A stretch of 64,000 nt of DNA from Nitrospirota bacterium (GCA_963845245.1 CAWJRJ010000011.1:134816-198815); one strand, 5' to 3'. Shown: positions 15,516-55,685, counted from the first letter of the stretch. Numbers and translations are program-made. The notes: generated from the letters alone by a model not told the origin.

Positions 15516-15607
15516 TTACTTTTCTTTCACGTGAAAGAAAAGTAACAAAAGAAAGCGAATTTAATAACGAAAGTTTTTGGCTCCACCTTTTTTCCCAAAA
15601 AGGCGGA
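15516..15607. repeat. A/T-rich hairpin+mirror-tail repeat, inverted pair
   Basis: 30-bp palindrome 15516-15545 plus tail CAAAAGAAAG; partner 15574-15607. Confidence 0.85.
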
Positions 15608-15614
15608 AAGACCC

Positions 15615-16058
15615 TCAACCTAATAATTCTTTTACCAGCTCGTTTACGAGCTTGCCGTCCGCCTTGCCCTTCACCTTCGGCATGAGCGCCTTCATAACCT
15701 TGCCCATGTCCTTCGCGCCCGCGGCCCCGGTCTCGGCTATAGCTTCCTTTATAAAGGCCGCGACCTCGTCTTTTGAGAGCTGCTGCGGCAGGTATTCTTG
15801 TATTATAACCAGCTCCGCCTTCTCCTTGTCCGCCAGGTCCTGGCGGCCACCCTTCTCGTACTGCTCGATCGAGTCGCGGCGCTGTTTGGCGGCGGTGTTA
15901 AGGACGGACAGTACACCCTCGTCGTCCAGCTCCTTGCGCTCGTCTATCTCCTTGTTCTTGATCGAGGAGGTAATAAGGCGAAGTGTTGACAGCTTCAACT
16001 CGGCACGCGCCTTCATGGCCGCTACGAGGTCGGCTCTGAGCTTCTCTTTTATTGACAC
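15615..16058 (-). CDS. yqeY: GatB/YqeY domain protein
   Basis: AMKA...KQRRDSIEQY...YLPQQLS...DMGKVM. Confidence 0.92.
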   Translation of the reverse strand: MSIKEKLRADLVAAMKARAELKLSTLRLITSSIKNKEIDERKELDDEGVLSVLNTAAKQRRDSIEQYEKGGRQDLADKEKAELVIIQEYLPQQLSKDEVAAFIKEAIAETGAAGAKDMGKVMKALMPKVKGKADGKLVNELVKELLG

Positions 16059-16134
16059 ATCACACCTTTATCTTGTTGAATTTTCTGGAAAAACACTGGT
16101 TCAGGATGTGCGCATACTCTAAGTTTAGGCAGGA

Positions 16135-16163
16135 AGTATACTCGGGGGGAACAGAGAAGTCAA
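16135..16163 (-). promoter_or_regulatory. Promoter of yqeY-mutS2-dnaG-rpoD
   Basis: TTGACT-N17-TATACT. Confidence 0.65.
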
Positions 16164-16188
16164 GCGCACGGGAAAGATAATTTTATTT

Positions 16189-16848
16189 TTATTTCTGTCT
16201 CGCCTTTAGTTCCTTATATACCTCGGATACCTCGACCCCCGACTCCGCAAGCATCACGAGGGTGTGATAGAGCAGGTCAGCCGTCTCTCCGACGATCTCC
16301 TTCTTCGAGCCGTTCTTCGCGGCGATTACCACCTCGGCAGACTCCTCGCCCACCTTCTTCAGGATCTTGTCCAGTCCTTCGTCAAAGAGCTTGTTGGTGT
16401 ACGAGCCTTCCTTCGGGCTGGTCTTCCTGCCCTTTATCGTCGTGAACAGCTTGTCCAGGACGTCGCTACCGGAATAAACGTCCGATACCTCGAACACCTT
16501 CTCCCCGGCCTCGCGTATCCCGTCCGCCTCGATCTTGGTATAGAAGCAGCTCCGGTTCCCGGTATGGCACGCGCCGCCCTTCTGGATAACCTTGAAAAGC
16601 AGGCAGTCGGCGTCGCAGTCGTAGGAGGCCTCCTTTACGGCCTGGGTGTGGCCTGAGGTCTCGCCTTTGAGCCAGAGCTTGCCGCGCGAACGGCTCCAGT
16701 AGGTGCAAAGCCCGGTCTCAAGCGTCTTTTCCAGCGATTCCCGGTTCATGAAGGCCATCATCAGGACCTCGCCGTTCTCGAAAGTCCTGCACGATTGCGG
16801 GGATGAGGCCGTTGCGTCGAATTTCAATGTATTTATGTCGAACATCAT
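16189..16848 (-). CDS. hisIE: Bifunctional PR-AMP cyclohydrolase/PR-ATP pyrophosphatase
   Basis: [25 protein letters not shown]; compensating indel pair near N-terminus. Confidence 0.93.
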
Positions 16849-16861
16849 TACCTCTTTATTA

Positions 16862-17018
16862 GCTTCTCGGGCTCGCTCCCGGCGATTCTCTCGGGTATTT
16901 CTAAGCTCGCTCACTGCGCCAGCAAAAACTCGCTTCGCTCAGACAGTTTGCTGTCGCAACGCTCACTTCACTAACAAATACCAACTCGGTCATCGCAAGT
17001 GCGCTCGCGCCAAGAGGC
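16862..17018. repeat. Long imperfect hairpin, related in inverted orientation to 36005-36182
   Basis: Shared core CTAAGCTCGC..TGCGCCAG.AAAAACTCGCTT.GCTCAGACAGTTT. Confidence 0.75.
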
Positions 17019-17024
17019 GTTGGC

Positions 17025-17507
17025 TTATAATTTATATCCTATCTTCCTCAGAAACTCTTTGCGCTCCTTAACATCGGCCGGCCCCTCGACGCCTTTCGGC
17101 GGGAAGCCGTCCACCACGCCCATTATGCCGCGACCCATCTCGGTCTGGGCGACTATCACCTCGACCGGGTTCGCCGTGGCGCAGAATATGTTCGCCACCT
17201 CCGGGCAGGCCTTAATCGCGTTCAGCACGTTTATCGGGAAGCAGTCCTTCATGACTATGCAGAAGGAATGCCCGCAGGCGATGCTCTTTATGTTCTCTAT
17301 CGCGGCGGCCTTCATGATCGCGTCGTTACCCTCGGCGCGTATCAGGCATGGCCCGGAGGCCTCAGAGAACGCGACACCGAATTTGCCCGCCGGTACACCC
17401 GACACCATTATTTCGTACAAGTCCTCTGCCGTCTTTATGAAATGGCTCTGCCCGAGGATTATGTTGCAGTTCTCAGGGATTGCAAGCTTGACTGCGTGAA
17501 AGTCCAT
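17025..17507 (-). CDS. Adenosine-specific kinase family (DUF355)
   Basis: NIILGQSHFIKT, FSEASG, CATANP, GRGIMGVVDG. Confidence 0.88.
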   Translation of the reverse strand: MDFHAVKLAIPENCNIILGQSHFIKTAEDLYEIMVSGVPAGKFGVAFSEASGPCLIRAEGNDAIMKAAAIENIKSIACGHSFCIVMKDCFPINVLNAIKACPEVANIFCATANPVEVIVAQTEMGRGIMGVVDGFPPKGVEGPADVKERKEFLRKIGYKL

Positions 17508-17525
17508 AAGATCCTCCCTTAGACC

Positions 17526-17612
17526 GTACTTTTCTTTCATTTGAAAGAAAAGTACCAAAAGAAAGCTATGCCAAGTTTTTTGGCGCACACCTTTTTTACA
17601 AAAAAGGTGGCG
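17526..17612. repeat. A/T-rich hairpin+mirror-tail repeat, inverted pair
   Basis: GTACTTTTCTTTCA-TT-TGAAAGAAAAGTAC-CAAAAGAAAG; partner 17576-17612. Confidence 0.85.
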
Positions 17613-17614
17613 GT

Positions 17615-18484
17615 TTAAAGTCTTACCGGAACGCCGCGACCTTGCAGGTATTCCTTCGCTTCCCTGATAGTATATTCCTTGTAATGGAATATCGAGGCCG
17701 CGAGCGCCGCGTCCGCGCGCCCCTTCTCGAAGCCGTCATATATGTGCTCAAGGTTGCCGACGCCGCCCGAGGCTATCACCGGGATACCGACCGCTTCCGA
17801 TACCGCGCGCGTAAGCTCAAGGTCGTACCCGTTCTTCTGGCCGTCCTGGTCCATCGAGGTCAGCAGTATCTCGCCCGCGCCGAACTCCTCCATCTTCACC
17901 GCCCAAGCCACCGCATCGATATATACCGGCTTGCGGCCGCCGTGCGTGAACAGCTCCCAGTGGATGCCGTTTCCGTCCATGCCCTGGAAGAAGAGGTTCC
18001 GAAGCTCGTCGTCGTGGCACCACGTCAGCTTATCCGCCACTTCCTCTATCTGCTTTGCGCGTACGCTGTCATCCACCGGCTCGGTGCGCTTCGCGTCGAT
18101 CGCCACCACGATGCACTGGCTCCCGAACCGCTCCGCCGCTGCCTTGATGAACCGCGGGTCGTAGACCGCAGATGTGTTGATGGACACCTTGTCGCAGCCT
18201 GCCAGCAGAAGCTCGCGGATGTCGTCGAGCGTCTTGATACCGCCGCCCACCGTGAGCGGCATGAACACCTGCTCCGATGTGCGCTTCACCACGTCGAGGA
18301 TGATGCCCCGCTTCTCGTGCGAGGCGGTGATGTCGAGGAACGTCAGCTCGTCCGCGCCCTGCTCGTCGTACGCCTTGGCCACCTCTACCGGGTCGCCCGC
18401 GTCGCGCAGGTTGACGAAGCTCACACCCTTTACAACGCGCCCGTCCTTGACATCAAGACAGGGGATAATTCTACGTGCCAGCAT
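17615..18484 (-). CDS. hisF: IGP synthase cyclase subunit with ~30-aa insertion
   Basis: [24 protein letters not shown]. Confidence 0.96.
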
Positions 18485-18501: not shown

Positions 18502-18537
18502 TTCTTTGGCGCTACCTTTCTTTCAAGAAAGGTGGCG
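18502..18537. repeat. A/T-rich hairpin+mirror-tail repeat, single
   Basis: TTCTTTGG-CGCTACCTTTCTT-TC-AAGAAAGGTGGCG. Confidence 0.8.
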
Positions 18538-20736: not shown

Positions 20737-21796
20737 TCAGGCTGCCAGTTCTTTTAAAACTTTAAGGAACTCAGCGTTCTCGTCCGGCGTGCCGACCGTC
20801 ACACGCAGGCAGTCCGCAAGCGGGCCGGGCGAGTCCATGTTGCGTATCAGGATACCGCGCTCCTTGAGGCCCTCGAAGATCCTGCCCGCACCGGCCACCC
20901 TGAATAAAATAAAGTTCGTCTTCGACGGATATGCCGTGATACCCTCCATCCCGGACAACTCCGTGAAAAGTTTCTCACGTTCATCAATGAGCTTTGCGAC
21001 CTGCGAGTCTATCACGTCGCGGCGCCTTAGTATAACCTCGGCGGCCGCCTGTGACAGGCTGTTCAGGTTATAGGGCAACCGCACCTTGTTTACCTCTGTC
21101 GTAACGTCCCTGCCCGCGGCCATTATACCGACACGAAGGCCAGCCATGCCGATCTTGGAAAGCGTCCGAAGCACTATAAGGTTCGGGTACTCGTTTATGT
21201 CATTTATAAAGCTATCGCCAGAGAAGCTGTTGTATGCCTCGTCCACGACCACTATGCCCCATGTGCCCGCGATCAGCCTGCGCACCTTGTCGCGGTCGAA
21301 CAGGTTCCCGGTCGGGTTGTTCGGGATATGCGAGGAAAAGCACCTTCGGCTTTTTCTCCATGAGCATCTTCAGAGTACCGTCGAAGTCTATGTCGAACGA
21401 GTCCGTCAAGGGTATCTCCAGCGACCTCCTGGCCCAAGCCTTAGCGATGATGCCGTACATCGAGAACGTCGGGACGGGGTATGCGATAAGACCGGGCGAG
21501 CCGCCGAAGGCAGAGATTATCATCCCGATTATCTCGTCCGAGCCGTTCCCCAGCGTGAGCATATCAGCCGGGACGCCCAGGTATTCGCTGAGCATGGCCT
21601 TCAGACGCTTCGCCTCCGGGTCGGGGTAGCGGTTCACCGCCACATCCGCCATAGTCTCCGCAAGCTCGCGCCGCAGATCCTCCGGCAGCAGGTACGGGTT
21701 CTCCATCGCGTCAAGCTTCACACGCGCCTGCACGTCCTCTATGGCGTACGCCTTCAGCGCCGCGACTTCTTTTTTAACTAAGAGCTTGATGTCCAT
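20737..21796 (-). CDS. hisC: Histidinol-phosphate aminotransferase (indel near 21325)
   Basis: NRYPD, GNGSDE, VVDEAY, RTLSKIGMAGLRVG. Confidence 0.93.
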
Positions 21797-21807: not shown

Positions 21808-21898
21808 CACTTTTCTTTTACAAAAAAGAAAGTGCCCCAAAGAAAATGTTAATTTAGAAATAAAATTTCTTGGGCCGCCTTCTTTACAAAGAAGGCGG
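21808..21898. repeat. A/T-rich hairpin+mirror-tail repeat, inverted pair
   Basis: Hairpin 21808-21834 plus tail; TTTCTTGGG-CCGCCTTCTTT-AC-AAAGAAGGCGG. Confidence 0.85.
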
Positions 21899-22805: not shown

Positions 22806-22900
22806 CACTTTCTTTTGGAAAAGAAAGTGAACAAAGAAAATCGCTACTTGATAATATTGGTTTTCTTTGGCTACTTTTCTTTTTTCCAAAAGAAAAGTAG
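22806..22900. repeat. A/T-rich hairpin+mirror-tail repeat, inverted pair
   Basis: CACTTTCTTTT-GG-AAAAGAAAGTG-AAC-AAAGAAAA; partner 22861-22900. Confidence 0.85.
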
Positions 22901-24219: not shown

Positions 24220-24257
24220 CCGCCACCTTTTTTGTAAAAAAGGTGCGCGCCAAAAAA
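24220..24257. repeat. A/T-rich hairpin+mirror-tail repeat, single
   Basis: Near-exact reverse complement of 17576-17615. Confidence 0.8.
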
Positions 24258-25532: not shown

Positions 25533-26390
25533 TTATGACTTGCGGGCGAATAGGACCCGCTCGATGCCAGCGAAGTCCGAAATATATTTTATGTATTCAA
25601 GGCCGGGCAGGGCTTCCACGATATCCCTCACCGCGCCCGCCTGCCCGAAACCCGTCTCAATCAATAGCCCCCCGCCGGGCTTGAGATACTCCGGCGCCTG
25701 TCTTATAATTTCACGTACTATGTCCAGGCCGTCCGGCCCGCCGTCCAGTGCCTGCAACGGTTCAAAACCAACTTCGGCCTGGAGTCCCGGTATATCCACC
25801 GAAGGTATATACGGCGGGTTTGAGACTATGAGGTCAAGCCCGCCCGCAAGGCCCGCTTGCGCAAGCGGCCCGAAGAGGTCGCCCCTTAGCAACCGGACCC
25901 GCCCTGCCACGCCGTTTAGCTCTGCGTTTTCGCCCGCTATCTTGAACGCCGCATCGGAACTGTCGATTGCGTATATTACAGCTTCCGGAAGGCCAGCCGC
26001 AAGGGAAATTGCTATGCAGCCGCTTCCCGTACCGATATCCGCAGCCGTCCTGCCGCCGCTCTCCTTGAGGAAGGCGATTCCCTCCTCGACGATTATCTCG
26101 GTCTCGGGGCGCGGCACCAGTACGCCGGGTGCAACATGAAAAGTGAGCCCGTAGAACTCCTGCCTGCCGGTTATGTATTGAAGCGGCTCGCGGCTCGCGC
26201 GCCGTGCTACAAATTTATGGAACCTGTCCGCAGCATCAGCATCCGGAGTATCCTTCAGCCTTGCAAGCACTCCGGCCCGGTTCATGCCGAGCGCCTCTGC
26301 CATCAGAAGTTCGGCCTCGAACAAGGACTCGCCCACGCCTGCCGCGCTAAGGGCGTCAGCCGCCTCGCGAAGCAGCGACGCGACGCTCAT
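25533..26390 (-). CDS. prmC: Release factor glutamine methyltransferase
   Basis: VPRPETE, DIGTGSG, NPPY. Confidence 0.95.
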
Positions 26391-27458
26391 CACAGCTCCT
26401 GCAGACGCTCCGCGTTGAAGCTGGTGACAAGCGCGTCTATCGTCTCGTCGAGGTCGCCTTCCATTATGGATTCAAGCTTGTAGAGCGTAAGCCCGACACG
26501 GTGGTCGGTCAGCCTGTTCTGCGGGAAGTTGTAGGTGCGTATCCGTTCGCTGCGGTCGCCCGTGCCCACCTGGCTCTTTCGTTCCTGGGAACGCTCGGCG
26601 TCCGCCTCGGCGGTCTTCAGTTCAAGCGAGCCTGGCCTGGAGCACCTTCATGCCCTTGGCCTTGTTCTTTAGCTGGGAACGCTCGTCCTGGCACGACACG
26701 ACAAGCCCCGTGGGAATGTGCGTTATCCTTATCGCGGAATAGGTGGTGTTGACGCACTGGCCGCCCGGCCCGGACGCGCAGAATATGTCTATGCGCAGGT
26801 CCTTCTGGTCGATCTTTACGTCGGCCTCGTCCGCCTCCGGCAGTATGGCGACCGTCGCGGCGGAGGTGTGTATCCTGCCGCTCGACTCGGTGGTCGGGAC
26901 CCTCTGCACGCGGTGCACGCCGCTCTCGTACTTCAGCCGGGAGTAGACCGCCTTGCCGGTGACCATCGCTATTATTTCCTTCAGGCCGCCGCCGCCGGTG
27001 AGGCTCTCGCTCATCACCTCGACCTTCCAGCGCCTCTTCTCGGCGTACTTCGTGTACATGCGGTAGAGGTCTGCCGCAAAGAGCGCCGCCTCGTCGCCGC
27101 CGGTCCCGGCCCGGATCTCCAGGAATATGTTCTTCTCGTCGTTGGGGTCCTTCGGCACCAGGAGGAGCTTTATCTCACGCTCTAACTCTTCCTTTTTCGC
27201 CTTGAAGTCCGCAAGCTCGACCTGCGCCAGCTCGCGGAAGTCCGCGTCCGACTTCTTGTCGTTTATTATCTCCTCGGCCTCGGCTATGCCCTTATCCACT
27301 TCCTGATACTCGCGGTACTTCTCCACGATCTCGGATATATCCGACTGCTCCTTGGAGTAGCGCATGAAATCCTGCTGGTTTGCGTGCACTACCGGGTCGG
27401 ACAAAAGCCTTGTCAGCTCTTCGTACTTCGCTACTACCGATTCTAACTTACCAAACAC
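26390..27458 (-). CDS. prfA: Peptide chain release factor 1 (indel near 26620)
   Basis: VQRVPTTE (PxT), [12 protein letters not shown]. Confidence 0.95.
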
Positions 27459-28434: not shown

Positions 28435-28470
28435 CGCTACCTTTCTTGTAAGAAAGGTAGCACCAAAGAA
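28435..28470. repeat. A/T-rich hairpin+mirror-tail repeat, single
   Basis: GCTACCTTTCTT-GT-AAGAAAGGTAGC-ACC-AAAGAA. Confidence 0.8.
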
Positions 28471-28945: not shown

Positions 28946-31446
<2,501 letters not shown>

Positions 31447-32268: not shown

Positions 32269-34847
<2,579 letters not shown>

Positions 34848-34851: not shown

Positions 34852-35958
34852 TCACGCTTTTATGTCAGCCCAGCCATCAGGGTCGGCCGTTACTTTGAAA
34901 GAATATCCTTTGTCTTTCAGTAATGTCTTATCCGTCGACGTAAACAACACTTGCCCCAGGCTGGACACGTACTCAAGAAGCGCCTCTTTGCGCCTGTCGT
35001 CCAGCTCGCTTACCGCGTCGTCCAGAAGCAGCACCGGCTGTTCGCCGGACTGCTCGTGGTAGAGCATCGCGTCCGCAAGCACGAGTGCAAGAAGCGCCAG
35101 CCTGCTCTGCCCGCGCGACGCCGTCGCCTTAAGCTCCCGGCCAGAGATCGTGAGCGCCAGGTCGTCCGTATGCGGACCTGCCAGGCAGTGGCCGCGCTTT
35201 AGACTGTCCTGCCGCTTCTTCTCGAGTATACGTCCGGTAGCAGGACCTCAAGCTCTGCCTTGTCACTGCCCTTGGCGTGGCTCTTATAGAGCAGGCCCAG
35301 ACTCCCGGCGCCCAGTACTTTATCGAACAGCTCGGCGGCGACCGGCATCAGCTCTTCCGCACGCACGCGCCGCCTTAAACCAACCTCGGCCGCAAGGGGC
35401 GCAAGCACTTCCTCATACGAGGCGACGACTTTAATATCCCTTGCCTTCAGAGCTGCGTTCAACTGCCGTACCGCCGCGCCGTACCGGGTCGCCATGTCGA
35501 GGTAGCCCGGCGTTGCATGGAATATCGAGCGGTCGAGGAACCGCCTGCGGCTTGAGGGGTACTCCTTCACCAGGAACAGGTCTTCCGGCGAGAAGCTTAT
35601 CACCCGAAGCGCCAGCAGGTAGCGGGCCGAACTCTCCGGCTTCTTGCCGTCAAGCCACGGCCGACGGCCTGCCTTCTCAAGGTCTACCTTGAGCTCATGT
35701 GCCTGGGTGTGGCCCTTTGCGCCTGCCCCGGTAACCATGCGGCCTGAGATGCGCGCCGACTTCTCTTCCCAGGATATGACGGACTGCGCCTTGACGCCCC
35801 TGAAGGAACGCAGGCTGCCCAGTATATGCACGGCCTCGAGCAGGTTCGTCTTGCCCTGCGCGTTGTCCCCGTGGAACAGATTCAAGCCCAGGGCCCAAAT
35901 CCAAATCAAGCGCCCGGTAATTTCTGACCGAACGCAGGGAAATCTTTTTTAAATACAC
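34852..35958 (-). CDS. recF: RecF (indels near 35890 and 35230)
   Basis: GDNAQGKTN, RRRFLD, LLLDDAVSELD. Confidence 0.92.
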
Positions 35959-35965: not shown

Positions 35966-35998
35966 CCACCTTTCTTATAAGAAAGGCGGCCCAAAGAA
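35966..35998. repeat. A/T-rich hairpin+mirror-tail repeat abutting a long hairpin
   Basis: CCACCTTTCTT-AT-AAGAAAGGCGG-CCC-AAAGAA. Confidence 0.8.
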
Positions 35999-36004: not shown

Positions 36005-36182
36005 GACAATTGGGCGGCCAAACGAACGGGCATTTGGCGAACAAGCTGGAATGACTTAGCGATGCGTAAGCGTACGCGCCGGAAACTGTCTGAGCAAAGC
36101 GAGTTTTTCTGGCGCAGCGTTGCGAGCTTAGTCATTGCCGAGCGAGCCAACCAGCCCGGAAGCTTGGGTGGCCAACTATCGT
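36005..36182. repeat. Long imperfect hairpin, related to 16862-17018
   Basis: CGGGC/GCCCG, TTGGC/GCCAA, AATGACT/AGTCATT, GCGCC/GGCGC nested. Confidence 0.75.
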
Positions 36183-37297
36183 CACACACGCATCGGCATC
36201 ACGACGCAGCGGTATCCGCCGTCGTCCGCCTGGCTTATTATGCAGGGCGAGAGCGAGTCCTTTAAAGAAGGACGACATTGTCGCTGTCCATCGCGGACAG
36301 CGCGTCCAGCAGGTACTTCGCGTTGAACCCGACCTCCATCTCGTCGCCCTTGTATGCGACGGCCAGGTCCTCGTGCGCCTCGCCCATCTCAGGGTTCTGC
36401 GACGAGAGCACGGCCTTTGAGTCGGCAAGCGAGAACTTGACGGCGTTCGTGCGCTCGCGGGAGAGGAGCGATACGCGCTTTAGCGCGGACGAGAGCAGCC
36501 CCTTGTCCACGTTGACAGTCTTGTCGTTGGAGGCCGGTATGACCTGCTCGTAGTTGGGGTAGTTGCCCTCGATCAGCCTGGTGACCATATATAGAGAGCC
36601 CGAGCCTGAACACTATGTGGTTTTTGGACATGGCCATCATCAGCTCGCCCTCGTCCTCGTCGAGGAGCTTCTTAAGCTCGGACGCGGACTTCTTCGGTAT
36701 TATGGCGGAGCCGCCCTGTGCAGAGATGTCGGCGTCGAGCTTCTTCTTGATGACCGCCAGCCTGTGGCCGTCCGTGCCGACCATCTGTATGGTGGCCCCG
36801 TCCGCCTCTTTTGCCAGGGACATGAATATCCCGTTCAGTACGTAGCGAGTATCGTTGTCGCCCGCGGCGAATATCGTCTTGCGGATAAGTTCGCGCATCA
36901 GGTGTGCGTCCACCGGCACGAACTCGGGACCTTCCATGTCCGGAAGCGCCGGGAAATCCTCCTTGGGGAGGCCCGTGAACTTGAAGACCGCGGAGCCGCT
37001 CTTGATCGTTGCCCAGTTGTTCTCGGCAGTCTCGAAGGAGACTTCCTCTGCAGGCAGCTCGCGGACGATCTCGAAGAGCTTCCGTGCCGATATGGCAACG
37101 CCGCCCGGCTCCTCCACCTGCGCCTCGTACACGCCGCGAAGCCCGATCTCAAGGTCGGTGGCCGTGACGGTTATCCCGCCCTCCCCGCTTTCGATCAGGA
37201 CGTTGGAGAGTATCGGCATGGTGTTGCGCCTGTCCGCGACCGACTGGACCCTGGAAAGCCCCTTGAGGAATTCTTCCTTCTTTATCGTGAATTTCAT
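36182..37297 (-). CDS. dnaN: DNA polymerase III beta clamp (indels)
   Basis: ATDLEI, GTDGHRL, YPNYEQVIP, FNAKYL, VVMPMRV. Confidence 0.95.
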
Positions 37298-40120: not shown

Positions 40121-40210
40121 CCCACCTTTTTTGTAAAAAGGGTGGCTAAAAAACTTTTTGATTTATATGTCACGTTTCTTTGTCCACTTTCTTTAACTAA
40201 AGAAAGTGGG
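40121..40210. repeat. A/T-rich hairpin+mirror-tail repeat, inverted pair
   Basis: 40121-40153 and TTTCTTT-GT-CCACTTTCTTT-AACT-AAAGAAAGTGG. Confidence 0.8.
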
Positions 40211-41813: not shown

Positions 41814-43252
41814 ATGAGCAAGCCGGACAACGATACCATCTGTGCCATCTCTACCCCGCTCGGGGCAGGTGGCATCGGCATCGTCAGATTGTCCGGTAAA
41901 GGCTCGGTGGAGATTATTTCTCAAATATTTGCCGCAAATAAGCCTTTAGTGGGTGATTATTTTAAATCTCACCGGATATATTATGGGAAGGTGGTAAATA
42001 AGCCTACAAACGAGACGGTGGACGAGGCGCTCGTGACCGTTATGCGCGCCCCGAAGACCTACACACGCGAGGACGTGGTGGAGATCAACTGCCACGGCGG
42101 GCCCGCATCCGTCAGGAAGGTGCTTGAGCTTGCAGTCAAGGCGGGGGCGAGGCTTGCCGAGCCGGGCGAGTTCACCAAGCGGGCATTCCTTAACGGCAGG
42201 ATAGACCTCACCCAGGCCGAGGCTGTAATGGACGTGATCGGCGCGGACACGGAGCTCGCCCTGGCATCAGCCGTGAAGCAGCTGGGCGGCGGCCTGAAGG
42301 CCAAGATTGAAGATATACGCGAAGCTGTCGCATCCCTTCTCGCCCTGACCGAAATATCCATAGACTTTTCAGACGAAGACATAGACTACGTTCCCCTCGA
42401 TGAACTCAAGAGAAGGGGCGGGGAGGCGAGAGCTTCGATATCCCGTCTCCGCAATACCTATAACGACGGCAGGGTCCTGAGAGAAGGCCTGAGGCTCGCA
42501 ATAGTCGGGAGCCCCAATGTCGGCAAGTCAAGCTTGCTGAACCTCGTATCGCGTACGGACCGTGCCATCGTGACCGAGATACCGGGCACTACCCGCGATA
42601 CCGTGGAGGAGATGGTGAACCTGGGCGGGATTCCCGTCAGGCTGATCGACACGGCCGGGATAAGGCACAGTGAAGATATTGTGGAAAAAGAGGGGATACG
42701 CCGCTCCGAAGAGGCGATAAAACAGGCCGACCTCGTGCTGCTGGTCCTGGACGGCAGCCGTGAACTTCAACAACAAGACGTTGATATAATTGAGAAAGTT
42801 AAGAGCAAGGCCCAACTTTCTTTTGGGAAAAGAAAGTGGCCAAAGAAAATCGGGACTTTCTAGTTTTAATTAACAAAAATGATTTGCCCCAGAAAATAAA
42901 TAGTGAAGTTCTTTGGGGTTACCTTTCTTCCAAGAAAGGTAACGAAGTCCGTCTTTCCTCAAAGACCGGCGAGGGGCTTGACGTGCTGGTGGCCCGGGTG
43001 AAGGATGCCGTGTTTTCGGGGGGCATGGAGAGGGCGCCGGAGGCGGCAATCAACCTGCGGCACAAGGAAGCCCTTGAAAGGGCAGATGTGGCGCTTGTCA
43101 GGTTCCTGGCTGGCTGCGACGAGAACCTCTCTCCAGAGTTCCTGGCGTTCGAGCTTCGGGACAGCCTCAATGCCGTCGGCGAGATAGTCGGGGCTACTAC
43201 CCCGGACGATATCCTGAACAGGATATTCAATGATTTCTGTATAGGGAAGTAA
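41814..43252 (+). CDS. mnmE: tRNA modification GTPase (indel near 42810; contains two repeat copies)
   Basis: GSPNVGKS, GTTRD, DTAG, NKND, C-terminal FCIGK. Confidence 0.95.
42811..42943. repeat. Intragenic inverted pair of A/T-rich hairpin+mirror-tail repeats
   Basis: ACTTTCTTTT-GGG-AAAAGAAAGT-GGCC-AAAGAAAA and TTCTTT-GGG-GTTACCTTTCTT-CC-AAGAAAGGTAAC. Confidence 0.85.
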
Positions 43253-43254: not shown

Positions 43255-43270
43255 TGTTCCACGTGGAACA
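43255..43270. promoter_or_regulatory. parS: parS site
   Basis: TGTTCCACGTGGAACA within a 24-bp palindrome. Confidence 0.93.
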
Positions 43271-43496: not shown

Positions 43497-43530
43497 TTTC
43501 TTTGGCCGCTTTCTTTGTGAAAGAAAGCGG
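43497..43530. repeat. A/T-rich hairpin+mirror-tail repeat, single
   Basis: TTTCTTT-GG-CCGCTTTCTTT-GTG-AAAGAAAGCGG. Confidence 0.8.
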
Positions 43531-45393: not shown

Positions 45394-45537
45394 GTATGGC
45401 GGGCAATATTATTCTCAAGTCATCAAAAAGATTCGCCTTGGTTTGCGACTAAGCTTCGAGCAATCTGACGCCTGCTCTCAGCAACTCGCAAAGGCTCGCT
45501 CACATTGATAACTTTCGAATAACACTGCCCGCCATAC
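45394..45537. repeat. Long hairpin element copy 1 (upstream of rsmG)
   Basis: Terminal stem GTATGGCGGGCA/TGCCCGCCATAC; ends shared with 46254-46391. Confidence 0.8.
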
Positions 45538-45588
45538 CTGCTCTCTTTTATCATTTATGCATAGATATTTATACACGTTATTCCAAAT

Positions 45589-45604
45589 TGTTCCACGTGG
45601 AACA
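45589..45604. promoter_or_regulatory. parS: parS site
   Basis: TGTTCCACGTGGAACA within a 26-bp palindrome. Confidence 0.93.
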
Positions 45605-45625: not shown

Positions 45626-46249
45626 ATGGACATTAAGAGGCTTTTAACAGGCGGCGCGAGCGAACTGGGTGTGCCCCTCTCGGCAGGCCAGGCCGATGCA
45701 TTCATGCTCTACCTGTCCGAGCTACGCAAGTGGAACCAGAAGACGAACCTCACCGCCATCGAAGACCCGCGCGACATCATAATTAAGCACTTCCTGGATT
45801 CGCTGTCCCTCCTGAGGATACTCCCCCCTGAAGCAAAAAACGCCTCAGACATCGGAAGCGGGGCGGGTTTCCCCGGCATTCCCATAAAGGTCGCGGTGCC
45901 GGGCCTTTCCATTACCTCCGTGGAGCCCGCACACAAGAAGGCCGCGTTCCAACGACATATCATAAGGCTACTCGGTCTTGAAGGCATAAGGGTTGTAGAG
46001 GCCAAGGTGGAGGAGGTCACGGCTGGATCTGAGAGGTTCGATATCATATTCTCTCGCGCCTTTAAGGAGCCCGAAGGCCTGCTGCCACTGGCCGGGCCGC
46101 TCCTTGCGGAAGGGGGGCAGATTATACTTTCTTTAGGGCCTTCTGTGGGCGAGGAACCGCCAGCGGGCTGGGAGATTGTCCGCCGCGAGGAGGTAACCCT
46201 GCCATACTCGGACATCAGACGCACACTTGCAAGTTACAAGAAAAAATAA
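45626..46249 (+). CDS. rsmG: 16S rRNA m7G527 methyltransferase
   Basis: WN..TNLT, HFLDSL, DIGSGAGFPG, SRAF. Confidence 0.94.
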   Translation: MDIKRLLTGGASELGVPLSAGQADAFMLYLSELRKWNQKTNLTAIEDPRDIIIKHFLDSLSLLRILPPEAKNASDIGSGAGFPGIPIKVAVPGLSITSVEPAHKKAAFQRHIIRLLGLEGIRVVEAKVEEVTAGSERFDIIFSRAFKEPEGLLPLAGPLLAEGGQIILSLGPSVGEEPPAGWEIVRREEVTLPYSDIRRTLASYKKK

Positions 46250-46253: not shown

Positions 46254-46391
46254 AGGTGTGAAATATTATTCTCAAGCCATCAAAAAGATTCGCTTCGCTT
46301 TTCAAGTAAGCCTCAGGCGACTGCGTCAGACCTCGGCATAACTTGAAAATGCTTGCTCACATTGATAACTTTCGAATAACACTTCACACCT
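46254..46391. repeat. Long hairpin element copy 2 (downstream of rsmG)
   Basis: Terminal stem AGGTGTGAA/TTCACACCT. Confidence 0.8.
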
Positions 46392-46421
46392 ATTTTTTTC
46401 AATCTAATTGAAAATTTGAGG

Positions 46422-46461
46422 CTTTCTTTTGTCTACTTTTCTTTCACCTGAAAGAAAAGTA
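46422..46461. repeat. A/T-rich hairpin+mirror-tail repeat, single
   Basis: CTTTCTTTT-GTC-TACTTTTCTTTCA-CC-TGAAAGAAAAGTA. Confidence 0.85.
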
Positions 46462-52515: not shown

Positions 52516-52581
52516 ATATCAAACGACTTAATAATATCGGAGGATGTACAACGGGTTTTATAAGCGAAAGGAGGCAGTCGT

Positions 52582-53487
52582 ATGTTCTTTTTCAGGTTTA
52601 GAGGTTTCCTCTGCACAGTCTTGCTCTTGGCCGCGGTCGGCATCGGGATGCCGGTGTTGGCCACCGCCGCCGATGACAGTTACGCCGGGGCAGCCAAATG
52701 CGCCGGGTGCCATGCGGAAATCGCCGCGGCGTTCGCGAAAAACATCCACAGCCATGCGGACAAATGGGAGGCAGGCTTCCAGGGTTGCGAGGGCTGCCAC
52801 GGCCCCGGCGAGACGCACGCCTCGTCTAGCGACCCCAACCTTATCAGAAATTTCCGGAAGCTCGACGCCAAAAATGCAAACGCGACCTGCCTGGGTTGCC
52901 ACGAGAAGGGCAAGCTTGTACACTGGACCGGCAGCCAGCATGAATCGCGCGGCCTTGGGTGTGTGGACTGCCACTCCATACACGGGGGCAACCGCCATCT
53001 CCTAAGAGAGGTCGAGGAGAAAGACGTCTGCGCAAGGTGCCACCTGGACATAAAGGCACAGCTTCTGAGGAGCAGTCATCACCCGATCCGCGAGGGCAAG
53101 ATCACCTGCTCCGACTGCCACAACCCGCACGGCACGATAGCCCCCAAGCTTATCGACGCAAATACGATAAACGACAAATGCTTCGAATGCCACGCCGAGA
53201 AGCGCGGGCCGTTCCTGTTCGAGCACAAGCCGGTGGTGGATGACTGCATCAACTGTCACACCCCGCACGGATCGAACCACGAAAAACTCCTTGTCAGAAA
53301 GGTGCCCTGGCTCTGCCTGAACTGCCATACCGGACATGGCAACAGGGGAGAAGGATTTGCACTTACACCGAGCCAGACGAACCCTTACAAGAGCCTGCGT
53401 GTAACGGCTCTTTATAGGGCGTGTCTAAACTGCCACGGGAACATCCATGGCAGCAACCATCCATCTGGCCAACGCTTCACCCGGTAA
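52582..53487 (+). CDS. DmsE/MtrA/PioA-family decaheme cytochrome c
   Basis: Signal peptide; ten CxxCH motifs; EKRGPFLFEH; IHGSNHPSG. Confidence 0.93.
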   Translation: MFFFRFRGFLCTVLLLAAVGIGMPVLATAADDSYAGAAKCAGCHAEIAAAFAKNIHSHADKWEAGFQGCEGCHGPGETHASSSDPNLIRNFRKLDAKNANATCLGCHEKGKLVHWTGSQHESRGLGCVDCHSIHGGNRHLLREVEEKDVCARCHLDIKAQLLRSSHHPIREGKITCSDCHNPHGTIAPKLIDANTINDKCFECHAEKRGPFLFEHKPVVDDCINCHTPHGSNHEKLLVRKVPWLCLNCHTGHGNRGEGFALTPSQTNPYKSLRVTALYRACLNCHGNIHGSNHPSGQRFTR

Positions 53488-53513
53488 AGGGCATAGACAA
53501 AGGAGGAAAGGCA

Positions 53514-55595
53514 ATGATAAAGATAAAGTACATCCTGGCCGTCATGGCCATGCTAATACTCTCCGCTGTCCCCGCCCTTGCGGTCGAGGGCGTGGAGGGC
53601 TCTGTTACGGGAGGGTTCGAGTTTTTCAGCGGTGACTTCAACAACGCCAAGTTCAACGAGTACCGCGTAAGGAGGGAGTCCCCCTGGGGCGGGTTTGCGG
53701 AGGTCGAAGCCAACTATGCAAAGCCGGACGGCAACCATGAGTATAACCTCTGCCTGAAATACAGGAGCCTTGAGGACATCGATATGCATTTTGATACGAT
53801 GTCTTACGGCGAATACAAATTCTTCGTGAACTACCAGCGGATGGGCCACACGTTCGCAACTAACGTGCATACCGTATATTCCGGAGACGGCACAGGGAAT
53901 CTGACCATTCCTGCCTCGACCTTGGCCACCGTAAATCCCAGTGATACTTTTACGTTACCTGGCTCGGCTTTGGCCCTCAAGGACGCAGTCGCTGATGCGC
54001 ATACCATAGACCTCTTCCTCATCAGGGACAGGGTCAAGACCGGACTTGACTGGATGTCGTTCAAGCCGCTTACGCTATACGCCCTGTTCGACTATGAACA
54101 CAGGGAGGGCGACAGGCCCTACGGCGCAACATTCGGTACCGACAATGGCATCGAGATACCGGAGCCGATAGACTACGACACATACAATGCCAAGGCCGGA
54201 GTGGAGTATGCCGGGCAGATGTATGCCAACGCCAGCTACAACCACTCTACGTTCAACAACAATATCCAGTCGGTTACCTATGACAATATAAAGGAGGGCA
54301 TCGGCGTCCCGACGAGGGGCAGGAGTTCTCTGGCACCTTCGAACGAGTTCGACAGCGTCTCGGTCGTGCTGGCGAAGAACCTCCCGCTCGCCACAAGGCT
54401 GATCTTTAATTTCAACTACGGCTGGCTCAGGCAGGACGAGGGCCTCCTTCCCCCGACCATAAATTCCGGTCTCGCTCCGTATAATACCACGGCCGTCCTT
54501 CCGAGGGACACCGCGGACGCAAGTGTGAACACCACGACCTATGACGTCAAGCTGACGTCGAGCCCCATAGACAAACTGGAACTGAAGGCCGGCTACCGTT
54601 ACTATCAACATGACAACAGGACTGCGGCAGCCCTCTTCCCCACCTCATTCACGGATACAGCTGATGATACATTAGAAGCAGACCCTTCCGAGTACGTAAG
54701 TTGGGTATCCCGCACGGTCAATGCGGAGGCCTCGTACGAGTTGGTCAGGCGTACGCATATAGGCTTCGCATGGGAGAACATGAATACATTGTACAGGAAC
54801 GGGATTCAGAACGAGGAGAGCGAGAATTCCTACAAGCTGTATGCGGACAGCAGGTTTCTCGATTATCTTACCGCAAGGCTGACCCTCGAATACAAGAACA
54901 GGGACGCGCTCTATAAATTAGAGTCCACCACCACACCGCGGGCGTTCTATGCCGCGGATAGAGACAGGTACATCGCCAACGCCCTCGTGACAGTCATGCC
55001 GATGGACAGCCTGACCGTTTCCGTGGACTACAGCTATGAAGACACAAGATATGCAAATACGGACTACGGCCTAAACAACGTGAGGGGCCACGTCGCCGGT
55101 CTGGACGCGGAATATCAGCCTGCATGGTGGCTTGGCATGAACCTCTATTATACCTACGAGAACCAGCGTGATCGTCAGAAAAATCCCAGGTCGGGCGCCA
55201 ACTGGGGGATTAAGACCACGGACGAGACCAACACCGTCGGCGGCGGGGTGGACGTCGGGATAATAAAGGACAAGCTCAATCTCAAAGTCGATGGATCCTA
55301 CGCCAAGGTCGACGGAGACGCGGCCTTTACGAGAAACACACCGCTATTGCCTTTTGACCACGTGGACGAGACCATGCTTACCAAGCTCGGGGCCACATTC
55401 AAGTACCAGGCAATGAAGGCGCTCGAACTGTCGCTTGGCTATGGCTACGAGAAATGGGACATAAAGGATTACCAGTATGACGGTGTGACCACCGTAGTAG
55501 TGGATCCAGGCTCCAGGACCCTGCTTGATATGAATACGCTCTACAAGCCGTACGAGGTACACTCTGTAATAGCGAGTGCAACGTACAAGTTCTAA
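53514..55595 (+). CDS. MtrB/PioB-family outer-membrane beta-barrel
   Basis: Signal peptide, AKFNEYR, PEPIDY, C-terminal ATYKF; follows decaheme gene. Confidence 0.9.
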   Translation: MIKIKYILAVMAMLILSAVPALAVEGVEGSVTGGFEFFSGDFNNAKFNEYRVRRESPWGGFAEVEANYAKPDGNHEYNLCLKYRSLEDIDMHFDTMSYGEYKFFVNYQRMGHTFATNVHTVYSGDGTGNLTIPASTLATVNPSDTFTLPGSALALKDAVADAHTIDLFLIRDRVKTGLDWMSFKPLTLYALFDYEHREGDRPYGATFGTDNGIEIPEPIDYDTYNAKAGVEYAGQMYANASYNHSTFNNNIQSVTYDNIKEGIGVPTRGRSSLAPSNEFDSVSVVLAKNLPLATRLIFNFNYGWLRQDEGLLPPTINSGLAPYNTTAVLPRDTADASVNTTTYDVKLTSSPIDKLELKAGYRYYQHDNRTAAALFPTSFTDTADDTLEADPSEYVSWVSRTVNAEASYELVRRTHIGFAWENMNTLYRNGIQNEESENSYKLYADSRFLDYLTARLTLEYKNRDALYKLESTTTPRAFYAADRDRYIANALVTVMPMDSLTVSVDYSYEDTRYANTDYGLNNVRGHVAGLDAEYQPAWWLGMNLYYTYENQRDRQKNPRSGANWGIKTTDETNTVGGGVDVGIIKDKLNLKVDGSYAKVDGDAAFTRNTPLLPFDHVDETMLTKLGATFKYQAMKALELSLGYGYEKWDIKDYQYDGVTTVVVDPGSRTLLDMNTLYKPYEVHSVIASATYKF

Positions 55596-55602
55596 CATCC
55601 CG

Positions 55603-55685
55603 GCTTTCTTTTGGTTCTTTTCTTTCACCTGAAAGAAAAGAACGATATTAGACGCAGCTTTCTTTTTTATAAAAGAAAGCTGCGT
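55603..55685. repeat. A/T-rich hairpin+mirror-tail repeat plus a related tail-less hairpin (possible terminator)
   Basis: CTTTCTTTT-G-GTTCTTTTCTTTCA-CC-TGAAAGAAAAGAAC; ACGCAGCTTTCTTTT/AAAAGAAAGCTGCGT followed by T-run. Confidence 0.8.

Follow-up and report, generated by a model that had tools for sequence, protein, structure and literature searches.

The window analysed here is a 64,000-nt stretch from the genome of an uncultured Nitrospirota bacterium (a metagenome-assembled genome, G000). Its genes include mutS2, hisF, hisA, hisG, hisD, gyrB, recF, yidC, mnmE, mnmG, parA and an MtrB/PioB-like gene, and among them lie short A/T-rich repeat units. In each unit a loop separates a T-rich from an A-rich arm, an outer stem of 4–7 bp extends the hairpin, and a tail mirrors the adjacent arm. 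A first-pass annotation had claimed about 20 such units at 14 loci; our census counts 21 tailed units at these 14 loci, the first starting at 15516 and the last ending at 55643, and 80 in the whole source genome. The examples it named are present: 15516 and 17526 (arm GAAAGAAAA, tail AAAAGAAAG), 22806 and 42815 (arm/tail pair AAAAGAAA, AAAGAAAA), 18502 (tail TTCTTT, arm AAGAAA), 21866 (TTTCTT, AAAGAA) and 17576 (T6, A6), as are the covarying outer stems GTAC, TTAC/GTAA, CCAC/GTGG, CCGC/GCGG and GTTC/GAAC. The units of the window are as follows.

15516–15555, minus strand: unit; hairpin 15516–15545 (TTAC/GTAA outer stem, T4CT3C arm), purine tail 15547–15555 on the plus strand; upstream of mutS2
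15574–15603, plus strand: unit; tail T5 15574–15578, hairpin 15586–15603 (CCACC/GGCGG, one A.C mismatch); 11 nt from the upstream gene's stop; tail-to-tail pair with unit 15516
17526–17565, minus strand: unit; hairpin 17526–17555 (GTAC stem), tail 17557–17565
17576–17609, plus strand: unit; tail T6 17576–17581, hairpin 17588–17609; 5 nt from the hisF stop; partner 17526
18502–18533, plus strand: solo unit; tail TTCTTT, hairpin arm TTTCTT; 7 nt from the hisA stop
21812–21846, minus strand: unit; imperfect hairpin (stem shifted by one base), tail AAAGAAAA 21839–21846
21866–21898, plus strand: unit; tail TTTCTT, hairpin CCGCC-TTCTTT; asymmetry opposite to 18502; partner 21812
22806–22840, minus strand: unit; hairpin CAC-T3CT4, tail AAAGAAAA; 26 nt before the hisG start
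22861–22900, plus strand: unit; tail TTTTCTTT, hairpin CTAC-T4CT4; 3 nt from the hisD stop; partner 22806
24224–24257, minus strand: solo unit; hairpin CACC-T6, tail A6; 30 nt before the hisD start
28436–28470, minus strand: solo unit; hairpin GCTACC-TTTCTT, tail AAAGAA
34746–34785, minus strand: unit; hairpin GTAC-T4CT4, tail AAAAGAAAA; 30 nt before the gyrB start
34807–34847, plus strand: unit; tail CTTTTCTTT, hairpin CTAC-T3CT4C; partner 34746
35969–35998, minus strand: solo unit; hairpin arm TTTCTT, tail AAAGAA; upstream of recF
40125–40152, minus strand: unit; hairpin CC-T6/A5-GG, tail A5; oriC-proximal spacer
40175–40209, plus strand: unit; tail TTTCTTT, hairpin CCAC-T3CT3; 22 nt before the yidC start; partner 40125
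42815–42849, minus strand: unit in the mnmE coding sequence; hairpin and tail AAAGAAAA; in-frame translation in relatives
42909–42943, plus strand: unit in the mnmE coding sequence; tail TTCTTT, hairpin GTTACC-TTTCTT; with orthologous counterparts in G001, G004, G006 and G007
43497–43530, plus strand: solo unit; tail TTTCTTT, hairpin CCGC-T3CT3; 8 nt before the mnmG start
46422–46461, plus strand: solo unit; tail CTTTCTTTT, hairpin TAC-T4CT3C; 133 nt before parA
55604–55643, plus strand: solo unit; tail CTTTCTTTT, hairpin GTTC-T4CT3C; after the stop of the MtrB/PioB-like gene

A canonical terminator-like hairpin with the same A/T core, without a tail, lies 3′ of the last unit, at 55653–55692.

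In the window, the pattern of the core hairpin turns up 13 times (0.02 expected), a number reached in none of 100 shuffles. Genome-wide, perfect hairpins in the order pyrimidine-loop-purine number 93, compared with 10 in the reverse order, among 831 perfect palindromes. Across the 80 units, arm and tail blocks measure 5–9 nt and loop 1 measures 0–8 nt; the tail lies 5–9 nt from the arm in 67/80, a span mostly taken up by the base-paired outer stem, and its register is exact in 73/80. Six examples folded computationally as DNA gave hairpins of -9.1 to -11.7 kcal/mol (z -3.0 to -6.5), with the tail free in all six minimum-energy structures (unit 15516: -10.2 kcal/mol, z -4.7, tail unpaired). Stem mismatches carry no RNA signature, G.T and A.C being found 8 and 7 times in unit orientation and 4 and 6 times in sense orientation (small numbers), and units facing starts (39) and stops (35) are nearly equal in number.

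Covariation of tail and arm

The proposed three-way covariation of tail, pyrimidine arm and purine arm is real and extends over 12 family genomes, the relation being a mirror, neither direct nor inverted. An exact full mirror of the hairpin's own arm is found within the 22-nt flank of 70/81 tailed hairpins, which thus display the pyrimidine block, antiparallel purine block and mirroring third block of ITxF-type elements; in 2000 shuffles of arms among units, the average was 31.6 and the highest count 41, with none reaching 70. When the genome-wide motif search was restricted to the 63 units with asymmetric (informative) arms, 53 tails were exact mirrors and two exact direct copies, and in a longest-match comparison the mirror exceeded the direct match in 58, tied in four and fell short in one. 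Tails hence track their arms, and the independent variation that would have spoken against the first-pass annotation was not seen. The relation holds both ways, with T3CT4 accompanying T4CT3 and the reverse, and likewise T2CT3 and T3CT2. Mirrors were also present in 14/14 informative units from 380 kb of the relative G006. In the 12 family genomes, the commonest tail and hairpin classes a and c, which have outer stems and loops in common, combine as a/a 211 times and as c/c 125 times, whereas a c tail accompanies an a hairpin once and an a tail a c hairpin twice (336 concordant vs 3 discordant).

As copies of a repeat family are not independent observations, the evidential weight lies on the at least eight distinct concordant tail/arm classes of the source genome, among them reciprocal pairs and a TTTCTCTTT variant. 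The source assembly has split housekeeping genes and some T-run lengths are possibly wrong, though errors of this kind would obscure the mirror rule rather than produce it. The pattern supports a putative Hoogsteen third strand, which predicts mirror covariation; neither a fixed protein site nor an alternative Watson-Crick partner predicts it. Mirror tails thereby offer clean evolutionary evidence that a triplex-type fold may matter.

Composites and position relative to genes

Placement at stops and starts, pairing into composites, mobility and clustering at the origin are additions to the first-pass annotation. The source genome holds 25 tail-to-tail pairs and no head-to-head pair. Such a composite joins two palindromic units of different type around an A/T-rich linker of 20–45 nt, with an overall length of ~105–125 bp; two unit types in alternating orientation and a specific linker, the hallmarks of BIMEs, are all found, the linker CTTTTAAAC.. 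being recurrent in G006 composites.

Units are intergenic in 75/80 cases and lie mostly within operons, e.g. his, atpG-atpD, hom-thrC, dapF-dapA, nifS-nifU and rph-rdgB. The hairpin begins 2–5 nt past the stop codon in 20 of the 35 stop-facing units and 8–37 nt ahead of the start codon in 23 of the 39 start-facing ones. Solo units carry a pyrimidine tail on the sense strand in 19 cases and a purine tail in 10, and all ten of the latter sit 2–15 nt past a stop, even with a spacer of 29–482 nt beyond; this placement hints at a transcript-level role. Inside mnmE, two units lie in frame within the coding sequence in three genera, where perfect stems are retained though the encoded peptide has changed, which counts against a purely selfish, decaying insertion.

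Mobility and distribution

In genus g2, four orthologous sites are empty in G001 and occupied, by composites or a solo, in G006 and G008, with flanks ~90–94% identical. Occupancy of orthologous sites by composites thus varies within a genus, and so they appear to be mobile; precise loss in G001 instead of gain may also account for the four sites. Presence/absence polymorphism and discrete ends, as expected of MITEs, are seen at these filled/empty sites, and the homology of 14 G006 composites ends at ..AACC and GGTTTT... Target-site duplications were not visible at the four sites, where the junctions have diverged. Upstream of mutS2, units occur at 3/8 relatives' loci, in an arrangement unlike that of the window, and at 5/8 there are none.

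Copy number ranges from 2 to 166 across family genomes, with 74–166 hairpins in G001, G006 and G008. The distribution in the phylum is patchy, with units in 11/11 other family genomes compared with 5/239 genomes of other families; of these five, G183 alone has clean copies among the matches listed. The repeat is limited to one Nitrospirota family and at least one genome of another family.

A factor that spreads or reads the units had been expected outside the window, and indeed none lies in the window, nor was one found in the source genome. No gene of the source genome is enclosed by a pair of unit ends. The suggested search for an HUH transposase flanked by the best copies led to three Y1_Tnp matches in the source genome, including a RAYT-like Y1 gene, with no unit within 6 kb, and the RAYT-like protein was not found in G001, G006 or G008, the g2 genomes with most copies. 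A cognate RAYT flanking or co-occurring with the units, as in REP/BIME systems, is thus not seen. DUF559 proteins occur in 7/12 family genomes and were not found in G000, G006 and G008.

Clustering around the replication origin

Of the 80 units, 21 lie within 41 kb around dnaA, where 1.14 are expected (~20-fold enrichment). The dnaA contig of G006 holds 37/68 class-a units, a count that, like those of the other relatives, rests on partly known contig sizes, and units also lie within kilobases of dnaA in G001, G008, G007 and G004. Identity with the ParB site parS was considered and rejected, since the hairpin at 15523 fits the 16-bp palindromic parS consensus only with two mismatches and most loops differ. 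Two exact parS sites are located at 43255 and 45589.

Discussion

Intrastrand triplex repeats known as BoxC, PIT or TMECO occur in E. coli, other Proteobacteria and Cyanobacteria (PMC4666352; Hoyne et al. 2000, as cited therein), and a DNA triplex of BoxC/TMECO has been demonstrated in vitro (Holder et al. 2015, PMC4666352). Drawing on the mirror covariation, composite anatomy, gain or loss at orthologous sites, placement and distribution described above, we give an even chance to the reading that the family is a mobile, BIME/MITE-like variant of these repeats. Paired units would form the two ends of a small mobile DNA element, and solo units one half of it. Once single-stranded, on the lagging-strand template, in a transcription bubble or in an extruded cruciform, a unit may fold as an intrastrand triple helix: T-rich arm, A-rich arm and outer stem would make the hairpin, and the tail would cross the major groove over the 4–7 bp outer stem and then lie on the purine arm, a geometry suggested by loop 1 of H-type pseudoknots. 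The pyrimidine-tail strand would form T.A-T triplets and one C+.G-C (ITxF class IV), the complementary strand the purine-motif version (class II). Selection would act on the fold, not on a fixed sequence, presumably at the DNA level, and whatever copies or overwrites units would probably recognise them in this folded form. The only places where the host tolerates them would be permissive loops of proteins and the junctions of operons.

The placement data also bear on an RNA element, a possible but doubtful alternative. Here, a pyrimidine tail and hairpin just upstream of a Shine-Dalgarno site would fold as a U.A-U/C+.G-C triple helix and a post-stop hairpin would cap the upstream cistron; the two would flank an AU-rich linker at which the operon transcript is cleaved, and would stabilise both products. 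The mostly intra-operonic location, the tight spacing to stops and starts, the stop-adjoining solos that hold position despite long spacers, the excess of pyrimidine sense tails and the structure retained in the mnmE message across genera fit this proposal, and pyrimidine-motif intrastrand triplexes can form in RNA according to the introduction of PMC4666352. The same introduction states that purine-motif ones do not, yet the sense RNA of the 35 stop-facing units has a purine tail that follows the mirror rule equally well; the stems moreover lack an excess of G.U over A.C, and no Rfam family matches the units. We consider it unlikely that the units are instead chromosomal landmarks that, as an extruded cruciform, a triplex or an H-DNA mirror repeat, bind a protein of the host (such as gyrase, a condensin loader or a nucleoid protein) and mark the origin-proximal domain. 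The enrichment around dnaA in the source genome and its relatives and the mnmE units conserved next to oriC agree with such a role, as does the order of purine arm, 5–9 bp spacer and purine tail, a textbook H-DNA mirror repeat; BoxC/TMECO likewise lies near the origin in E. coli K-12 (PMC4666352). However, mirror-repeat halves of only 5–9 bp are short for H-DNA, and the enrichment could equally arise from local hopping, gene dosage or compact-operon density.

Two further readings are already disfavoured. It seems very improbable that the tail competes for Watson-Crick pairing with the purine arm (as in a switch or attenuator), or that the three tracts are sites of one sequence-specific protein. 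With the near-symmetric tracts of the commonest class, 7/9 tail bases could pair antiparallel with the purine arm, but the T2CT3/T3CT2 classes leave only four Watson-Crick pairs, the direct copies of the pyrimidine arm expected from such pairing are far outnumbered by mirrors, and the tail was unpaired in every folded example; a protein site would have one fixed sequence, not at least eight covarying classes in one genome. It is hardly credible that the units are ordinary intrinsic terminators, or that A/T-rich intergenic DNA produced them by chance. Units do stand at gene ends, and the hairpin at 55653–55692, with its GC stem and T7 run, looks like a true terminator. Yet tailed units never have a T-run 3′ of the hairpin: on either strand a T-tract precedes or an A-tract follows, rather than a G/C-rich hairpin leading directly into a U-tract, and units lie inside operons and even in mnmE. 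Chance is ruled out by the shuffles and reversed-pattern controls.

A host function for the fold, with a structure-specific factor reading the units as origin-proximal landmarks or the pyrimidine-tail form capping the 5′ ends of processed cistrons as a bacterial RNA triple helix, is rather improbable. If true, it would account for the crowding around oriC in every family genome examined and for the perfect folds that three genera retain in mnmE at the expense of the protein sequence.

Returning to the reading as a mobile triplex repeat, the units resemble the REP/BIME elements of Enterobacteria in being short palindromes of two types that alternate in orientation and are joined by a specific linker, in their position at operon junctions and 3′ ends, and in a copy number that differs between relatives. 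BIMEs bind gyrase and IHF. Unlike REPs, which are G/C-rich, the units have A/T-rich stems, no GTAG tag, no RAYT link, and a mirror tail without counterpart in REPs. Bacterial MITEs, such as Correia/NEMIS and the palindromic elements of Rickettsia, share the size of ~110 bp, inverted ends, presence/absence polymorphism, insertion between cistrons and in-frame copies within protein-coding genes. However, no target-site duplication was visible at the diverged junctions and no parent insertion sequence was found for the composites, whose ends are self-folding hairpins with mirror tails, of two different types, instead of plain terminal inverted repeats. Major-groove RNA triple helices (telomerase RNA pseudoknot, SAM-II and preQ1-II riboswitches, ENE/MALAT1) likewise place a pyrimidine strand in the major groove of a U-A-rich helix, with a very short linker spanning several bp, but these are single conserved RNAs with other partners, whereas the motif described here is a dispersed DNA repeat in both orientations to transcription.

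The first-pass comparison with BoxC/PIT was apt, and the units are a new relative of these poorly understood E. coli "triplex" repeats. As PMC4666352 describes it, BoxC/TMECO has the same three-block layout on one strand, with a pyrimidine arm, a purine arm and a mirror of the latter (ITxF class II, the other strand class III/IV), forms inverted pairs of two types, and is always intergenic, beside genes of no particular functional class; in E. coli K-12 it clusters near the origin, and its carrier loci are rearranged between strains. TMECO itself is ruled out, since its consensus of a C-rich 9-mer, a loop and two G-rich 9-mers is not matched by the A/T-rich units, which have at most one or two G.C triplets; with so few, the pyrimidine-motif strand would remain stable at neutral pH. 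Third strand and triplex core are separated by a covarying 4–7 bp Watson-Crick outer stem where TMECO has a 3-nt loop, many sequence classes stand against one nearly invariant 37-mer, and the tight placement at stops and starts contrasts with the lack of a preferred distance in TMECO; the host phylum differs as well. The ITxF rule given there (stem blocks of 6–15 nt, both loops 1–6 nt) leaves many copies outside its search window, given the block and loop 1 sizes found here and the 5–9 nt span that makes up the second "loop". A separate G/C-rich, TMECO-like family coexists in the source genome.

Anatomy and census of the repeat units

Every repeat example quoted in the first-pass annotation was found in the window sequence, and its estimate of about 20 units at 14 loci agrees with our census, in which 14 loci from 15516 to 55643 hold 21 tailed units. 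For the core hairpin pattern, 0.02 occurrences are expected in the window and 13 were counted. Read with the pyrimidine tail first, a unit comprises the tail, 1–3 linker bases (mostly G), a 4–7 bp outer stem strand, a T-rich arm with 0, 1 or 2 C, a loop of 0–8 nt, the complementary A-rich arm and the second outer stem strand, usually followed by GGT. On the opposite strand the order is ..A(A/G)ACC, hairpin, C(C) and purine tail. Tails are strictly T/C, or A/G on the other strand. Hairpins of type 1 have arms of 7–9 nt and stems such as GTAC, TTAC, CTAC or GTTC, those of type 2 arms of 5–6 nt and stems such as CCACC, CCGCC or GTTACC. As DNA, the unit hairpins fold at -9.1 to -11.7 kcal/mol, leaving the tail free.

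The source genome holds 831 perfect palindromes (stem at least 8 bp, loop 0–8 nt), with a homopyrimidine inner left arm in 93, a count including nine overlapping readings of one T8/A-run, versus a homopurine one in 10. At a stem of at least 7 bp, 129 T-rich hairpins were found; with eight of shorter arms left out, the tail census covers 121 hairpins with a trimmed arm of at least 5 nt, 81 of them tailed on one side and 40 tailless. A canonical-looking terminator (GC stem plus T7) at window 55653-55692 is built on the same TTTCTTTT/AAAAGAAA core and is tailless.

Tail and arms change together as mirror images

Among the 63 tailed hairpins of the source genome with asymmetric arms (the other 18 of the 81 have symmetric arms and are uninformative on mirror versus direct), the mirror gives the longer match in 58, mirror and direct tie in 4, and the direct match wins in 1, which is a second reading of the same hairpin. 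An exact full mirror of the arm lies in the flank of 70 of the 81 tailed hairpins; when arms were shuffled among units 2000 times, the number of exact mirrors averaged 31.6, peaked at 41 and in no case reached 70. Exact direct copies were present in 2 of the 63 informative units. Tail and arm are in exact register in 73 of 80 units; in 67 of 80, 5–9 nt separate the end of the tail from the arm. Concordant tail/arm classes include T3CT2|T2CT3 (17 units, plus 5 of the reverse), T3CT4|T4CT3 (10 units, plus the reverse), T4CT3C|CT3CT4 (8 plus 3), T3CT4C|CT4CT3 (6 plus 2), T5, T6 and the TTTCTCTTT form.

That the tail changes with the stem, as claimed from the window, holds in the genome-wide census and across 12 genomes of the family, with 336 concordant and 3 discordant cases.

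Tail and hairpin classes in 12 family genomes
Hairpin T4CT3C (class a): tail CTTTCTTTT 211, tail CTTTTCTTT 1
Hairpin T3CT4C (class c): tail CTTTCTTTT 2, tail CTTTTCTTT 125

Of the three discordant cases, two have a T4CT4 form and are ambiguous. Each class was found in 10 genomes of 4 genera, and outer stems and loops are common to both. In the relative G006, mirrors were present in 14 of 14 informative units over 380 kb. Tail and arms all fit within 40 nt and would stay together through copying alone. What argues for selection is therefore how many concordant classes there are and how rare one-step intermediates are, at ~1% among copies with freely diverged loops and outer stems.

A unit pair within mnmE

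Covariation of tail and arm is also seen at an orthologous site within a protein-coding gene.

Window 42815-42943: unit pair in mnmE

In the relatives G001, G004 and G007, mnmE is one frame through both units, in G006 it stays in frame through both with a frame change further on, and mnmE of G002 is without either unit. In the source genome the loop of unit 1 differs in length by one base, which puts the two halves of mnmE in different frames; assembly indels are the likely cause, since six other window genes are split too. Unit 1 is translated as ..LSFAEKK.SKEN.. and unit 2 as ..EVFG.TFFQKG.EV... The outer stems vary across the five genomes: C(A)AC/GTG, CCC/GGG, CTTC/GAAG or CCAC/GTGG in unit 1, and GTTACC, GCTACC or GCAGCC with its complement in unit 2. 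Unit 2 combines arms T5-6/A5 with tail T5 in G001, G004 and G006, and arms TTTCTT/AAGAAA with tail TTCTTT in the source genome; G007 has the latter arms and the tail TTATTT, one departure from the mirror. The 11–12 bp stems thus stay perfect while the encoded peptide is radically different, which shows that the nucleic-acid fold and not the protein is what is kept in mnmE. G004 and G007 are congeneric, yet differ by many coordinated changes in these units, so that overwriting (conversion) by another family member is at least as likely as stepwise compensation.

An intrastrand triplex best fits the mirror tail

Other sources of a tail that follows its arm fit less well. A sequence-specific protein site would fix one sequence, whereas at least eight classes coexist; an alternative Watson-Crick partner would directly copy the pyrimidine arm, which the tail does not do; replication slippage or template switching yields direct or inverted repeats, not mirror repeats. 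In a triplex, as set out in the ITxF survey of intrastrand triplex repeats (PMC4666352), the third strand is the mirror, pyrimidine strands lying parallel to the purine arm (T.A-T, C+.G-C) and purine strands antiparallel (A.A-T, G.G-C). An intrastrand triplex is accordingly the best-fitting candidate for the mirror tail and is supported by the sequence comparisons.

Outside the window, the source genome carries a second, G/C-rich family of hairpins with mirror tails (CCCTCCCC, a 7–8-nt loop, GGGGAGGG, then GGGTGGGG), which looks like the E. coli TMECO design.

Examples of the G/C-rich mirror-tail family in the source genome (contig:position)
C12:39687
C14:70975
C18:139864
C18:184744
C19:3444
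C21:28350
C21:139389
C21:142691
C22:26428
C25:32090

Its G-rich tail has T where the arm has A, placing T opposite A-T. Set against the strict T/C tail of the A/T family, this hints that in the latter the pyrimidine-tail strand may be the one that folds (class IV, the pyrimidine motif). A class IV fold of an A/T unit would need a single protonated C and, given its T.A-T-rich composition, should form at neutral pH. The outer stem would not be an obstacle, as a linker of 1–3 nt could reach the 5' end of a 4–7 bp stem. Viewed from a third strand's 3' end, the strand on the far side of the major groove lies several bp further along a helix, and loop 1 of H-type pseudoknots spans a stem likewise; by this analogy, we infer that short linkers could bridge the outer stem of the unit.

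Placement, gain and loss of composites

Tail-to-tail pairs (composites) number 25 in the source genome and comprise 50 of its 80 units, with 26–81 nt between hairpins; no head-to-head pair was found among these 80. The pairs of G006 are copies of one discrete element of ~105–125 bp, ordered ..AACC, type-2 hairpin, CC, A5, a linker beginning CTTTTAAAC, pyrimidine tail, G, type-1 hairpin and GGTTTT.., and homology among 14 copies stops at ..AACC and GGTTTT... Either end of a composite can hold either hairpin type. Such an architecture matches a BIME; it also matches a MITE with hairpins as its terminal inverted repeats.

By our own ORF-based gene calls, 75 of the 80 units are intergenic, always with the hairpin toward the nearer gene and the tail away. 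The hairpin of the 35 stop-facing units begins 2–5 nt past the stop in 20 and within 15 nt in 27; the 39 start-facing units lie 8–37 nt from the start in 23 cases, the Shine-Dalgarno sequence directly following the hairpin. Lack of room as an account of stop-codon proximity was rejected for those single units (solos) that have long spacers. Stop codons (16 TAA, 6 TGA, 5 TAG) overlap or abut the conserved end motif A(A/G)ACC, with a register that is not fixed. The motif is already there at one empty site, and may be either brought or targeted by the element. Neighboring genes belong to ordinary biosynthetic and housekeeping operons without a functional theme.

Upstream of mutS2, the genes abut in three relatives, two have only a G/C hairpin that is also present in the window, and three further ones have two units each in an arrangement unlike that of the window. 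In the genus g2 (G001, G006, G008), with flanks ~90–94% identical, four sites that are empty in G001 are occupied in G006 and G008, three by composites and one by a solo. Genes on either side of an empty site abut or leave ~15 nt, with a Shine-Dalgarno sequence, between them. No target-site duplication was visible at these filled and empty sites, and junction bases differ between alleles. Gain and loss at orthologous sites indicate that the composite moves as a unit, or did so until recently, and that solos can arise alone. At a fifth site, orthologous to G006:C2:55140, a G/C-rich element of ~55–90 nt (GGGGTCCCCACCGC ... GCGCGGGGC) lies inside the units of G001 and G008, exactly between the A/T hairpin and its tail, as it also does at the relatives' locus L006.

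Candidate mobilizers

A HUH transposase gene flanked by units, which the first-pass annotation had proposed to look for, did not emerge: no A/T unit lies near the three RAYT-like Y1 transposase genes of the source genome (one intact, one truncated, one broken).

RAYT-like Y1 genes in the source genome
C20:196272-197313
C1:18683-19129
C30:15855-16366

A RAYT-like Y1 protein was also not found in the g2 genomes richest in copies, and on both grounds RAYT was rejected as mobilizer. The intact Y1 gene adjoins a GTAG-tagged G/C hairpin (GGGGCCGAC..GTCGGCCCC) within a stretch translating to IVGADLCVGP, a peptide that resembles the gene's own IVGANLCVGP motif. Genes for DUF559 have G/C-rich pyrimidine-loop-purine mirror-tail hairpins within ~100 bp at 8 of the 9 relatives' loci examined (L152–L161; G001, G002, G004, G007, G009, G010). 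DUF559 was set aside as a lead; it was not found in G000 (the source genome), G006 or G008, and none of the hairpins listed beside its genes is an A/T-rich unit. An autonomous element, with two ends whose tails face a gene, was not found in the source genome.

Distribution across Nitrospirota and around the origin

Each of the 11 other family genomes carries the hairpin motif, at 2–166 per strand, whereas 19 genomes of other families have 0–3. A reversed control pattern occurs 0–3 times. A degenerate three-block pattern searched in 251 Nitrospirota genomes matched in 12 of 12 genomes of the family and in 5 of 239 others. Of these 5, G183, from another family, has 31 clean copies among the matches listed, G214 has 38 matches counted by pattern next to 6 control matches, and in G130 control matches outnumber real ones.

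Left of ~38.7 kb, the window carries minus-strand genes (dnaA, dnaN, recF, gyrB, gyrA, prfA, prmC, murA, the his operon, mutS2) and to the right plus-strand genes (rnpA, yidC, mnmE, mnmG, rsmG, parA, parB). GC skew changes sign at this switch and the intervening DNA is A/T-rich, so the window spans the replication origin. In the source genome, 21 of 80 units lie within 41 kb around dnaA, compared with 1.14 expected. Contig C6 of G006, which harbors dnaA, holds 37 of 68 class-a units, and C3 (at least 712 kb) holds 3; units are also found within a few kb of dnaA in G001, G008, G007 and G004. With contig extents partly known, origin enrichment in relatives is a consistent tendency, not a measured gradient.

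Action as DNA or RNA

Action at the DNA level, together with mobility, is the account we rank first, and we would put its chances at about even. A role as RNA seems rather improbable. In favor of DNA, both orientations to transcription are about equally common, the mirror rule is as strict in purine-tail copies as in others, and stems show no excess of G.U over A.C, although numbers are small. In favor of RNA, or of some process linked with transcription or translation, solos stay at stop codons despite long spacers, their sense strand more often carries the pyrimidine tail (19 to 10), and the fold is retained within the mnmE message. Least probable of the three, and quite unlikely in our view, is that the units serve as a chromosomal landmark; these accounts are not mutually exclusive.

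Rfam yielded no match in the whole window at gathering thresholds, nor at E <= 0.1 in window 15300-47000. Inspected by eye, the linker offered nothing consistent as a promoter (-10/-35), and the tail plus outer stem did not fit sigma-54 spacing. A reading of the ACGT-loop hairpins as parS was ruled out.

Relation to known triplex repeats

The closest described system is BoxC/PIT/TMECO of E. coli, which the ITxF survey presents as known since the 1990s without an assigned function and with neighbors likewise without a functional class (PMC4666352). Like the A/T family, it is built of three blocks, lies between genes, occurs in two types as inverted pairs and is biased to the origin (PMC4666352). 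The A/T family differs in its A/T-richness, its many classes, a paired stem bridging the third strand, tight placement at stops and starts and its Nitrospirota host. BoxC/PIT/TMECO repeats are nearly invariant, so they have no covariation to show. A/T-rich motifs are counted in the survey and treated there as close to chance (PMC4666352); with loops capped at 6 nt, it would pass over many A/T units. The A/T family illustrates that published triplex searches, limited to loops of at most 6 nt, would overlook designs whose third strand is bridged by a Watson-Crick stem. Literature searches on intrastrand triplex repeats, Nitrospirota REP/MITE elements and bacterial RNA triple helices yielded no description of the A/T family, although the ITxF tables and database may include A/T-rich motifs from other taxa.

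For the long-standing question of whether living bacteria form intrastrand triplexes and make use of them, the A/T family is an unusually informative example of the hairpin-plus-mirror-tail design. Its many classes, in which tail, pyrimidine arm and purine arm change together, form a natural mutate-and-rescue series, so that a few oligonucleotides would suffice to test the triplex hypothesis directly.

Further features of the window

The source genome comprises 2.88 Mb in 37 contigs, with the window at G000:C11:134816-198815. Its gene content is bacterial, and the nearest relatives of MutS2 (61–68% identity) are Nitrospirota/Nitrospirae MAG records. Seven genes are split between two frames, which suggests assembly indel errors rather than seven pseudogenes.

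Two-frame splits in the window
20737-21796: hisC
26390-27458: prfA
28946-31446: gyrA
32269-34715: gyrB
34852-35885: recF
36132-37297: dnaN
41814-43252: mnmE

Two exact copies of a parS-type palindrome (TGTTCCACGTGGAACA) adjoin parA/parB, at window 43255-43270, just after mnmE, and 45589-45604, just before rsmG. The latter gene (45626-46249) lies between two direct repeats of ~150 nt, ~82% alike (45398-45560 and 46255-46400), for which Rfam gave no match. Window 2001-8000, with 35–44% G+C compared with 54–59% in the genome, may be foreign DNA. Near the window end, 62998-63899 contains a 300-nt tandem duplication of 92% identity and an identical 69-nt repeat with copies 450 nt apart.
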